From a virus (lineage: Duplodnaviria > Heunggongvirae > Uroviricota > Caudoviricetes): 5,063 bases of DNA. The notes beneath the pieces are model-generated. The model made no database searches and was not told the DNA's origin. It was given only the letters and a program-made list of their open reading frames with translations. Shown one piece after another: positions 2,883 to 5,063 of the stretch (the stretch's first letter is position 1; each line of letters begins with the position of its first letter). Both the position numbers and the translations under genes were made by a program. The stretch lies in IMG/VR virus record IMGVR_UViG_2778261276_000004. The stretch is one strand, 5' to 3'.

Positions 2883-3067
2883 GACCTCTCTTCTCTAACT
2901 AAGGCACCGAACTAAGAAAAGTTTGGTGTTTTCTCTTGCCATAATAACTAAGTTAAGTTAGATTTTATATCAAAGATAACGAACAGGCAGGACGCCCACG
3001 AAGTAGCCGCCTGGGGCATATGAAGTCCAGGATGATTCGTTGAGTCATGTTGTGCCACTAGGCACTC
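2883..3067 (+). promoter_or_regulatory. OL/PL-like operator-promoter region downstream of cI
   Basis: AACTAAG recurs at 2897-2903, 2910-2916 and 2946-2952. The 14-mer ctaagttaagttag (2948-2961) matches the OR site ctaagttttattag at 11 of 14 positions. Plus-strand promoter candidate: -35 TTGCCA (2936-2941), 17-bp spacer, -10 TAGATT (2959-2964), with the operator overlapping spacer and -10. Hairpins at 3015-3036 (CCTGG...CCAGG) and 3052-3065 (GTGCC-acta-GGCAC) lie in the leader. Confidence 0.45.
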
Positions 3068-3088
3068 ATGTTAAAGCAGGTGTATGAA

Positions 3089-3364
3089 ATGAAAGTCCAG
3101 ATTTTAAACAATAACTGTGAAGTCGTTTGGTCATACGACATAGCCGCCCCTGTAGATCAGAGCGGCGATAGCTGGACCAATGGGAAACATCAGATTATGG
3201 CTGGAGTTGTGTTCTCTTTACGCCGTGCTTTGGAACAGGCTGAAGTATTTCCATCAGACCCTGAATGGAAATGGCCTTTTTCTATTTGTCCAAATTCGGA
3301 GAGCACATTTCAGAAAATTGGTCAGAAAGTCGCACTCGAAGAGCATCAGCCAACTGTTTCCTGA
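3089..3364 (+). CDS. hypothetical small protein, first ORF of the early-left transcript
   Basis: ORF track gives 3068..3364. The ATG at 3089 is preferred because AGGTG (3078-3082) lies 6 nt upstream. No arginine-rich motif, so it does not look like an N-type antiterminator. The 3' end overlaps the convergent ORF at 3282..3527 by 83 nt, so one of the two may not be real. Confidence 0.4.
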   Translation: MKVQILNNNCEVVWSYDIAAPVDQSGDSWTNGKHQIMAGVVFSLRRALEQAEVFPSDPEWKWPFSICPNSESTFQKIGQKVALEEHQPTVS

Positions 3365-3527
3365 TTTTTTCAGGTAACTCGTCGGCATCGCAGAAACAAC
3401 AACGCTCGATCATGTTGAAAGCCGATTCGTAGAACTGTTTCTGCTGAGTGTCGCTGAGACAGGAAAAGAGCGACGTTACGATGATTTTATTAATTGCATT
3501 ATCAAGTTCTTTTTCATCAAAAGTCAT
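3282..3527 (-). CDS. hypothetical small protein (81 aa), convergent to the early-left transcript
   Basis: Strong RBS on the minus strand (AAGGAAAA, about 5 nt before the ATG at 3527). Translation is protein-like (MTFDEKELDNAINKIIVTSLFSCLSDTQQKQFYESAFNMIERCCFCDADELPEKIRKQLADALRVRLSDQFSEMCSPNLDK). AT-rich codon usage suggests an acquired accessory gene. Confidence 0.5.
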   Translation of the reverse strand: MTFDEKELDNAINKIIVTSLFSCLSDTQQKQFYESAFNMIERCCFCDADELPEKIRKQLADALRVRLSDQFSEMCSPNLDK

Positions 3528-3699
3528 TTGATTTTCCTTTTATGTATACGGGCTTAAAAGGATACCACCGAGCCTGAAGTGGTGAAAAGACAGGCACATA
3601 ACAGCTAAGTATTTTCAACCAAAGAGAATCCTTAGCGTTGTGGTGAATGCGGCTCAGCGCACGCGGGTTAAGGTTGAGGCTGACAGTCGACCTTCTGTG

Positions 3700-3827
3700 G
3701 ATACCCACCCGCCTGGTGTGCAACCTTCGCCAGGCACCGGGAGGCACCCGGCACCACAACTTTATGCTGTGTGTAGTCTTGGCGGTACCAGTTTGTACCC
3801 TTGCTTCCGGCTGGTATCGCCCTTTTT
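3700..3827 (+). ncRNA. candidate small RNA ending at an intrinsic terminator (possibly DicF-like); 5' boundary undefined
   Basis: GC-rich, hairpin-rich segment with no protein-like ORF on either strand. GGCGGTACCAGTTTGTACCC (3781-3800) resembles, from memory, the GGCGGTATCAGTTTTACTCC segment of E. coli DicF. Its location in the early-left operon of a lambdoid prophage matches where dicF sits in the Qin prophage. Confidence 0.3.
3781..3827 (+). terminator. Rho-independent terminator (plus strand)
   Basis: Stem GGCGGTACCAG (3781-3791) pairs with CTGGTATCGCC (3811-3821), 11 bp including one G-U pair, with a 19-nt loop. It is followed by C then TTTTT (3823-3827). Confidence 0.55.
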
Positions 3828-4040
3828 ACAAAACAGAGAAGAGCATCACCGGACGACGGGCTTATAACCCAATCCATCCGGGCGGCTGCTACCGCAGGTG
3901 TTCTTCTCTGTTTTGTGGAGAAACTAACTGCCCCTGCGGGGGCATTTATGGAAATGTAATTGACTCAATAATCGCCGGACGGTGAGGGCTTCCTTTTACC
4001 CGAATTCAGCGCGGTGCAGCGCATATACGTGGAGAACAAA

Positions 4041-4577
4041 ATGTCATTTATTAAAACTTTTTCCGGGAAGCATTTTTATTATGACAGGATAAATAAAGAC
4101 GACATCGTTATTAACGATATCGCGGTTTCCCTTTCAAATATCTGTCGCTTTGCAGGACATCTTTCACACTTCTACAGTGTCGCCCAACATGCGGTGCTTT
4201 GCAGCCAGCTGGTGCCACAGGAATTTGCTTTTGAAGCTTTAATGCATGATGCAACAGAAGCATATTGCCAGGACATCCCCGCACCACTGAAACGACTTCT
4301 TCCTGACTATAAACGGATGGAAGAAAAAATAGACGCCGTAATCCGTGAGAAATACGGGTTACCTCCTGTTATGAGCACGCCAGTGAAATATGCCGATCTC
4401 ATTATGCTGGCAACCGAACGCCGCGATCTCGGGCTTGATGATGGCTCTTTCTGGCCTGTACTGGAAGGTATCCCGGCAACAGAGATGTTCAAAGTGATTC
4501 CACAGGCACCGGGCCATGCCTACGGGATGTTTATGGAACGTTTTAACGAGTTATCGGAGTTACGCAAATGCGCATGA
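4041..4577 (+). CDS. yfdR: HD-domain phosphohydrolase, YfdR-like 5'-deoxynucleotidase
   Basis: HD motif visible (FYSVAQHAVLCSQL ... EALMHDATEAYCQDIP). The ORF track begins at a GTG at 4014; the ATG at 4041 with GGAG 6 nt upstream gives 178 aa. Gene name is from memory of the K-12 CPS-53 prophage HD-domain protein, not from a search. Confidence 0.8.
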   Translation: MSFIKTFSGKHFYYDRINKDDIVINDIAVSLSNICRFAGHLSHFYSVAQHAVLCSQLVPQEFAFEALMHDATEAYCQDIPAPLKRLLPDYKRMEEKIDAVIREKYGLPPVMSTPVKYADLIMLATERRDLGLDDGSFWPVLEGIPATEMFKVIPQAPGHAYGMFMERFNELSELRKCA

Positions 4578-4930
4578 ATGTTTTCGAAATGGAAGGGTTT
4601 CTTCGTGGGAGATGTGTACCGCGAGATCTGAAAGTGAATGAAACAGATGCTGAATACCTGGTGCGTAAATTCGATGCGCTTGAAGCTAAATGTGCAGCAC
4701 AGGAAAACAAAGTAATACCAGTGTCAACTGAACTGCCACCAGCAAATGAAAGTGTTTTGTTATTCGATGCTAACGGAGAAGGCTGGCTAATTGGCTGGCG
4801 TTCTCTCTGGTACACCTGGGGACAAAAAGAAACCGGAGAATGGCAGTGGACATTTCAGGTCGGGGACCTTGAAAACGTCAATATCACTCACTGGGCAGTA
4901 ATGCCAAAAGCACCGGAGGCTGGAGCATAA
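4568..4930 (+). CDS. yfdS: hypothetical protein (120 aa), YfdS-like by position and length
   Basis: ATG at 4568 with GGAG 8 nt upstream; overlaps the stop of the HD-domain gene by 10 nt. Translation is protein-like. The name rests only on recalled synteny and size in K-12 CPS-53. Confidence 0.65.
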   Translation: MRMNVFEMEGFLRGRCVPRDLKVNETDAEYLVRKFDALEAKCAAQENKVIPVSTELPPANESVLLFDANGEGWLIGWRSLWYTWGQKETGEWQWTFQVGDLENVNITHWAVMPKAPEAGA

Positions 4931-5063
4931 TGACCACTTTTACCGACAAAGAACTGATTAAAGAAATTAAAGAGCGTATCAGCAGCTGGATTTGCCCCTA
5001 TATTTCCAGACATCTGTTATCACTTAACCCATTACAAGCCCGCTGCCGCAGATATTCCCGTGG
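4930..5063 (+). CDS. hypothetical protein, N-terminal fragment (continues past window end); YfdT-like by position
   Basis: ATG at 4930 overlaps the TAA stop of the preceding gene (TAATG). GGAG lies 4 nt upstream. The frame is open to the window end (MTTFTDKELIKEIKERISSWICPYISRHLLSLNPLQARCRRYSR...). Confidence 0.5.
   Translation, partial: MTTFTDKELIKEIKERISSWICPYISRHLLSLNPLQARCRRYSR

Follow-up and report, generated by a model that had tools for sequence, protein, structure and literature searches.

Related systems

The closest studied relative of the genes described here is the yfdQ-yfdR-yfdS-yfdT cluster in the CPS-53 (KpLE1) prophage of Escherichia coli K-12. This cluster was isolated as a multicopy suppressor of hda-185 (Noguchi & Katayama 2016, PMC4776307). 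According to the sections of that paper cited here, purified K-12 YfdR binds domain I of DnaA, and the binding is specific and Phe46-dependent. In multicopy, yfdQ and yfdR together with either yfdS or yfdT inhibit initiation at oriC, and yfdQ is indispensable. The same sections report that no phenotype in initiation is seen when yfdQRST is deleted, and the authors allow that the effect of overexpression might be an artefact. They also name orf29-31 of phage SfV as homologues of YfdQRST. A passage of a 2025 eLife paper (PMC12122000) cites YfdR as a prophage inhibitor, a competitor of DnaB in the binding to domain I of DnaA.

We have analyzed a stretch of viral DNA of 5,063 nucleotides, which we call the window. 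It is the immunity and early region of a lambdoid prophage of the SfII/SfIV/SfV type. Its closest phages are the Shigella flexneri serotype-converting phages SfII, SfIV and SfV, and Escherichia phage SKA5, with 96–98% DNA identity over most of the window. Relatives of the window are integrated at thrW, adjoining proA. The minus strand contains an O-like replication gene with iteron-like repeats of 15 bp, as well as genes of the DUF4222, YmfL/CII-like and P22-Cro-like types, while a LexA/cI-type repressor gene is found on the plus strand (2256-2882). All reading frames of these regulatory and replication genes are open.

The region which interests us is found at the right end of the window, and it resembles the K-12 cluster in several ways: The gene order is the same, both start/stop overlaps are present, and the similarity extends to the 115 bp upstream of yfdR, including a hairpin which is described below. 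On the other hand, the window lacks yfdP and yfdQ, its yfdT gene is cut after codon 19 by an insertion sequence, IS2, and the prophage is of a different type: It is SfII-like, with cI, cro and ymfL genes of another specificity. The four phages mentioned above also differ from the window, as they have no IS2 in yfdT. SfIV and SfV contain the DUF2303 gene (yfdQ), which the window does not. SKA5 encodes a 100% identical YfdR at the equivalent position after cI, but it has an Ea22-like gene where the window has yfdT.

yfdR, yfdS and the yfdT remnant

Two intact genes and the beginning of a third one are found in this region, all of them on the plus strand. The first gene is yfdR (4041..4577, ATG at 4041, TGA at 4575-4577), with a GGAG ribosome-binding site 6 nt 5' of its ATG. 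Its 178 amino acid product, a predicted HD-domain metal-dependent phosphohydrolase, can be aligned without gaps with the full length of K-12 CPS-53 YfdR: 174 of the 178 residues are identical (98%), and the substitutions (R16K, K151N, Q155L, E169D) are all outside the HD residues. The second gene is yfdS (4568..4930, ATG at 4568, TAA at 4928-4930). It codes for 120 amino acids, 115 of which are identical in K-12 YfdS (96%). Both genes are intact and show only conservative changes with respect to K-12, and the RefSeq names of the matching genes, found in thousands of E. coli genomes, are yfdR, yfdS and yfdT. Judging from the sequence, the two intact genes are orthologues of K-12 yfdR and yfdS.

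The genes overlap. The overlap between yfdR and yfdS comprises 10 nt (4568-4577); there is also an in-frame ATG at 4574 in yfdS, which gives a classic ATGA overlap. The stop codon of yfdS and the ATG of yfdT (4930-4932) overlap in the sequence TAATG (4928-4932). A first-pass annotation of this DNA had reported these coordinates and both overlaps, and they agree with the ORF list and with the raw sequence. It had also named similarity to YfdR and YfdS as a check of the assignment, and the identities given above confirm it.

YfdS corresponds to phrog_583 (E 1e-82). Its N-terminal segment is helical and variable, and the DUF551 domain at its C-terminus (PF04448, residues 50-117) exceeds the cut-off by a small margin (22.2 bits, cut-off 22). 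All homologues detected in a homologue search are enterobacterial prophage proteins. They are mosaic: The N-terminal segment is swappable, and many of them have Ead/Ea22-like N-termini. No informative domain fusion was found among these homologues. This mosaic structure agrees with a passage of the Ea22 paper, which describes DUF551 as a portable domain. A fold search with YfdS was dropped: The AlphaFold model obtained from a 16-sequence alignment was too poor (mean pLDDT 49.8, pTM 0.34).

The third gene, yfdT, is a remnant. Only its first 19 codons are present (4930..4986, plus strand), with the sequence MTTFTDKELIKEIKERISS, as found by alignment with the intact yfdT genes of K-12 and NRZ101541. 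Complete YfdT has 101 amino acids, and the reading frame is incomplete here. The first 57 bases agree with yfdT, and the sequences diverge from there on: In every BLAST comparison the homology with yfdT ends at 4986. The rest of the window (4987..5063, minus strand) is the right end of IS2, a member of the IS3 family, with 77 of 77 bases identical to the right end of K-12 IS2A. The match is in the reverse strand, begins exactly at the annotated IS2A boundary and runs to the end of the window. The remnant is fused in frame to IS2, which gives MTTFTDKELIKEIKERISS-WICPYISRHLL... as the beginning of the fused product. The 4987-5063 sequence has thousands of matches annotated as IS2 in E. coli genomes. 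The transposase genes of this IS2 would lie on the minus strand, past the end of the window.

Thus yfdT is inactivated by an IS2 insertion. Among 5,426 complete E. coli genomes and the species-representative ones, none contains the exact yfdT-IS2 junction, a sign of a recent, strain-specific event. The source is likely to be a Shigella or a different strain rich in IS elements. An independent insertion of IS2 in yfdT is found in NZ_CM129041, 20 bp further downstream. The first-pass annotation had described the region as a yfdR-yfdS-yfdT-like cluster: This description is correct for the first two genes, which are orthologues of their K-12 counterparts, but not for yfdT, which is cut by IS2.

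The missing yfdP-yfdQ cassette

In K-12, SfIV, strain ST540 and other genomes, yfdP and yfdQ (DUF2303) are found directly upstream of yfdR, and most relatives have this cassette. It is absent here. The BLAST break-points with L004 and K-12 show that a 1.3-kb yfdP-yfdQ cassette is missing at 3926/3927. The match with ST540 breaks at this same position and resumes 1.3 kb further on, and the homology with K-12 begins at window position 3926, directly after the stop codon of yfdQ. Neither the ORF list nor Pfam shows any DUF2303 ORF within the window.

The cassette-less junction (3926..3944, plus strand) adjoins a terminator-like hairpin, GCCCCTGCGGGGGC (3931-3944). This hairpin follows yfdQ in other genomes, and in those which contain the cassette a similar hairpin is found at its opposite border. 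The 3926/3927 junction beside GCCCCTGCGGGGGC looks like a module boundary.

We have counted both types of junction in complete E. coli genomes. The yfdQ-yfdR junction is found in 2,674 of them and the yfdQ-less junction in 457, about 15% of the copies. The yfdQ-less arrangement also seems to occur in the viable phages SfII and SKA5. From these comparisons, the yfdQ-less form is a minority but natural variant.

The absence of yfdQ affects the function which may be expected from this locus. The first-pass annotation had mentioned reports that YfdR interacts with DnaA and that the cluster inhibits initiation of chromosomal replication when overexpressed. Both statements are found in the literature, in the sections cited above (PMC4776307), but the inhibition cannot be transferred to the locus as it stands. 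When compared with the published minimal set, yfdR and yfdS are present, yfdQ is absent and yfdT is truncated. As yfdQ is indispensable according to those sections, the locus does not contain the minimal set, and on its own it would not be expected to give the multicopy phenotype. Nevertheless, the similarity to K-12 YfdR is such that the protein encoded here should bind domain I of the host DnaA at Phe46, and should compete with DiaA and DnaB.

Position and expression

We have found five copies of an operator-like motif, ACTAAGn5TTAG, where 0.28 are expected. These motifs are found solely in two regions: the cro-cI intergenic region (2170-2234) and a region downstream of cI (2911-2961). The second one forms part of a putative OL/PL (2911..2964, plus strand), in which the operator-like motif overlaps a PL-like promoter, TTGCCA-17-TAGATT (2936-2964). 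This promoter matches the consensus, is in the same strand as yfdR, about 1.1 kb upstream, and points to it. As the operator-like sites are confined to two regions and the PL-like promoter points to yfdR, it is reasonable to place this gene in the leftward early transcription unit.

Several elements are found between PL and yfdR. Two small ORFs overlap convergently, phrog_3195 on the plus strand and phrog_3311 on the minus strand. They are accompanied by a candidate sRNA of the STnc100/PasD type (3615..3830, plus strand, 216 nt), which ends in an intrinsic terminator hairpin. Its score with the Rfam family RF02076 (STnc100, a prophage sRNA) is 41.7 bits (E 1e-7), while the gathering score is 47. 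The fold z-score of the candidate is −2.4, and its strong terminal hairpin is followed by a U-run. The intrinsic terminator spans 3781-3829, and the hairpin at 3931-3944 is a second one in the path from PL to yfdR. We have recognized no N-like antiterminator among the ORFs scanned in the window, and a promoter scan did not find any good sigma-70 promoter directly upstream of yfdR.

The genes had been described in the first-pass annotation as cargo of the early-left operon. A position downstream of a leftward promoter controlled by the repressor is plausible for them, but the putative read-through from PL faces an intrinsic terminator and an sRNA-like element.

The HD-domain family of YfdR

YfdR corresponds to phrog_318 (E 3.8e-109), and 332 phage records, whose hosts belong to many genera, contain homologues detected by tblastn. 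Its relationship with known enzymes is more distant. In Pfam, both matches are below threshold: the YfbR-like family PF12917 (24.5 bits, threshold 25.9) and HD_3 (17.1 bits, threshold 22.5). The NCBIfam equivalog of YfbR, NF003009, gives a score of 19.9 with a cut-off of 122, which leaves YfdR outside the equivalog. The dATP triphosphohydrolase family phrog_7076 matches YfdR with an E value of 1e-4.

The closest solved structure is that of Atu1052 from Agrobacterium (PDB 2gz4), which matches the single YfdR sequence with an E value of 1.5e-12 over residues 19-175, nearly the full length. Atu1052 is an uncharacterised HD protein: It gives information about the fold of YfdR, but not about its activity. 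A family profile made from a ten-homologue alignment finds Atu1052 (3.9e-29), YfbR (5.6e-5) and DatZ (0.026), and also matches Lin2634, OxsA-like proteins and HDDC2. YfbR, the HD-domain 5'-deoxynucleotidase of E. coli (PDB 2paq), belongs to the same clade of small HD-domain proteins: The HD..E....D core and its flanks can be aligned, and the metal ligands are conserved. Nevertheless, the pairwise alignment between YfbR and YfdR covers just about 40 residues around the HD motif, with 33% identity. These comparisons indicate that YfdR is a small HD-domain metal-dependent phosphohydrolase of a family found across phages, whose nearer relative is Atu1052 and whose more distant ones are YfbR, OxsA and DatZ. 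With respect to YfbR, it appears as a distant relative only, not as an equivalog.

The H...HD...D metal-binding residues of the HD superfamily are present in YfdR (H50, H69, D70 and D119), as well as E73 and D78, and they can also be aligned with Atu1052 and YfbR. We have aligned ten diverse phage homologues from 7 host genera, with identities between 35 and 98%. R36, F37, H50, H69, D70, E73, D78 and D119 are invariant in all ten. We take these residues to be the equivalents of the metal ligands, the catalytic Glu and the substrate residues of YfbR. The set of metal-binding and catalytic residues is complete in YfdR, as far as can be deduced from the alignment. Their loss had been proposed in the first-pass annotation as evidence against an HD-domain enzyme, and they are all conserved.

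That annotation had also suggested an enzyme of the 5'-deoxynucleotidase type. The HD motif is clearly present, but the nucleotidase type depends on a distant similarity, with scores below the YfbR cut-offs. In addition, YfdR has far weaker affinities for nucleotides than YfbR, as stated in a section of PMC4776307 which cites Zimmerman 2008. An engineering study has found that deletion of yfdR does not change the yield of CMP (PMC10870394). The name "5'-deoxynucleotidase" has been carried over in annotation from a protein which is only distantly related, and does not correspond to a demonstrated activity. A related case is Dmp, the deoxynucleoside-5'-monophosphatase of phage T5, whose name is the label given to YfdR homologues by PHROGs and by phage annotators. 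We have considered T5 Dmp as a possible homologue of YfdR and have ruled it out: The BLASTP E value is 3.5, there is no alignable similarity, and Dmp has a HAD-type DxDGT motif. The name shared by both proteins reflects annotation, not common ancestry.

The neighbours of the HD gene are different in other phages. ST64B and Eeyore, whose proteins have 66–67% identity, keep the yfdP-like, DUF2303 and HD genes together, but the downstream genes differ. In Pseudomonas, Klebsiella, Vibrio, Caulobacter, Bacillus and phiKT phages, neither DUF2303 nor DUF551 is found beside the HD gene. In these more distant phages its neighbours are genes of replication and nucleotide metabolism: Pseudomonas phage Turba has a dNMP kinase and a cytosine methyltransferase there, Vibrio phage VpKK5 has SSB, a helicase and a Cas4-type nuclease, a Bacillus phage has DHFR and thymidine kinase, and phiKT has a helicase and a polymerase. 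As linkage of yfdR, yfdS and yfdT was not found in any of these phages, including ST64B and Eeyore, it appears to be local to enterobacterial lambdoid prophages. Taken together, the members of the YfdR family point to a link with the metabolism of DNA and nucleotides.

Possible function

We consider it very probable that this region is the tail of the leftward early accessory part of an SfII/SfV-type lambdoid prophage, with intact yfdR and yfdS, a yfdT gene inactivated by IS2, no yfdP or yfdQ, and a presumed role in damping host initiation. Upon induction of the prophage, yfdR and yfdS would be transcribed from the leftward promoter controlled by the repressor. Their products may then damp initiation of host chromosome replication, which would favour replication of the phage, and perhaps they also adjust the deoxynucleotide pools in its favour. 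The module is degraded here: What is left would be, at most, YfdS and the YfdR enzyme with its binding to DnaA.

The selected function of YfdR might instead be purely enzymatic, a possible explanation which we find somewhat less than probable. YfdR would then be a nucleotide-pool enzyme of the phage, either a dNMP phosphatase or a di- or triphosphohydrolase similar to DatZ and OxsA, which reshapes the deoxynucleotide pools for synthesis of phage DNA; its binding to DnaA would be a side effect of overproduction. The conservation of the catalytic residues in phages which range from Escherichia to Bacillus and Caulobacter agrees with such a function, as does the fact that the family profile reaches YfbR, OxsA and DatZ, together with the match to phrog_7076. 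In virulent phages the homologues adjoin genes for thymidine kinase and DHFR, dNMP kinase, or helicase and polymerase, and the DnaA proteins of those hosts differ. The frequent absence of yfdQ also fits, and so does the possible artefact admitted by the authors of PMC4776307. Nevertheless, the same sections of that paper describe low nucleotide affinities and a specific, Phe46-dependent binding of the purified protein to DnaA, and both speak against a purely enzymatic function. A variant of this idea, which we judge unlikely, is that what the YfdR family truly does may be to hydrolyse a specific nucleotide, possibly a modified or signalling one, while the phage replicates its DNA. DnaA binding would then have been added in enterobacteria, or result artificially from overproduction. 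This variant is suggested by the existence of yfdQ-less copies and viable phages and by the HD residues, which are invariant even in virulent Bacillus, Caulobacter and Vibrio phages, where the gene is found among those for replication and nucleotide metabolism.

The locus might also be a decaying, non-functional remnant of a defective prophage, where selection no longer acts on yfdR and yfdS. The disruption of yfdT by IS2, with a junction which neither the 5,426 complete E. coli genomes nor the species-representative ones contain, and the loss of yfdPQ are what we would find in such a case. However, yfdR and yfdS are both intact and their changes are all conservative, the yfdQ-less arrangement appears to be common to the viable phages SfII and SKA5, and the regulatory and replication genes of the window are all open, so we regard decay as rather doubtful. 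Much less credible is a prophage defence or superinfection-exclusion module which depletes nucleotides against incoming phages. Nucleotide-depleting defence enzymes do exist, and the accessory position near the immunity region would suit one of them. But the genes are found downstream of a promoter under the control of the repressor and should therefore be silent in the lysogen, and homologues are common in strictly virulent phages, a poor fit to protection of lysogens. No PADLOC model matches any of the seven proteins which we have scanned (YfdR, YfdS, YfdT, YfdP, YfdQ and the two small ORFs), a result which goes against the effect on incoming phages through nucleotide pools put forward in the first-pass annotation.

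Significance

As far as can be seen from its near identity to the studied K-12 cluster, the yfdR/yfdS locus is already known, and the K-12-type cluster is present in about half of the complete E. coli genomes. The value of this analysis is corrective: yfdT is a remnant cut by IS2, yfdQ is absent, and the name of the enzyme comes from distant homology. The published phenotype of replication inhibition should not be assumed for a copy without yfdQ and with a disrupted yfdT. On the other hand, the presence of the yfdQ-less form in 457 genomes and in viable phages suggests that YfdR and YfdS probably have a role which is independent of YfdQ.

Variation around yfdR

The 1.3-kb cassette of yfdP and yfdQ is polymorphic, present in some genomes and absent from others. 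Among 5,426 complete E. coli genomes, 2,674 present the junction with yfdQ and 457 have the junction without it. Short G+C-rich hairpins, which are alike, are found at the borders of the cassette: GGCCTTGCAGGGTC and GCCCCTGCGGGGGC. The junction is at 3926–3944 in the window, which lacks the cassette, and the borders are at 6927–6950 and 8225–8250 in L004, the comparison genome which contains it. Downstream, yfdT has been the target of two independent IS2 insertions, one in the window (4987–5063) and the other in E. coli strain 500010 (NZ_CM129041; L001 locus, position 7107 onward). They are 20 bp apart and have identical orientation.

Regulatory and replication features

The operator-like motif ACTAAGn5TTAG has five matches, compared with 0.28 expected by chance. 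All of them fall within 2170–2234 and 2911–2961, where the OR and OL operators, respectively, are expected. The OL cluster (2911–2961) overlaps a PL-like promoter (2936–2964). Immediately 3' of this promoter there are two small ORFs, one at 3068–3364 on the + strand (phrog_3195, E 6e-70) and one at 3282–3527 on the − strand (phrog_3311, E 1e-55). They are convergent and overlap by 83 nt; depending on the record, either one or the other is annotated.

The longest ORF of the YmfL/CII-like regulator (1363–2034, − strand) has 223 amino acids, starting from a GTG, and at this length it runs into the cro-like gene (1958–2158). Its relatives are annotated with 183–185 amino acids, so the true start is probably internal to this ORF.

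Four to five copies of a 15-bp tandem repeat, with consensus CAGATTTTGACGGGT, are found at 646–720, inside the O-like gene (77–1018, − strand). They are similar to origin iterons located within a replication initiator gene, the same arrangement found in lambda. Read on the coding (−) strand of the O-like gene, they correspond to a repetitive acidic linker of the protein, rich in Ser, Lys and Asp.

A small RNA candidate

A structured element at 3615–3830 (+ strand) resembles Rfam STnc100 (E 1e-7), with a score of 41.7 bits, just under the gathering score of 47 bits. At its 3' end it has a DicF-like hairpin with a T-run after it (3781–3829). STnc100 has been tied to prophage PasD sRNAs (2026 preprint, 10.64898/2026.05.13.724894). 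In related genomes, RefSeq labels the equivalent stretch as a 'frameshifted hypothetical protein'. We consider that this element is probably an sRNA gene, not a pseudogene.
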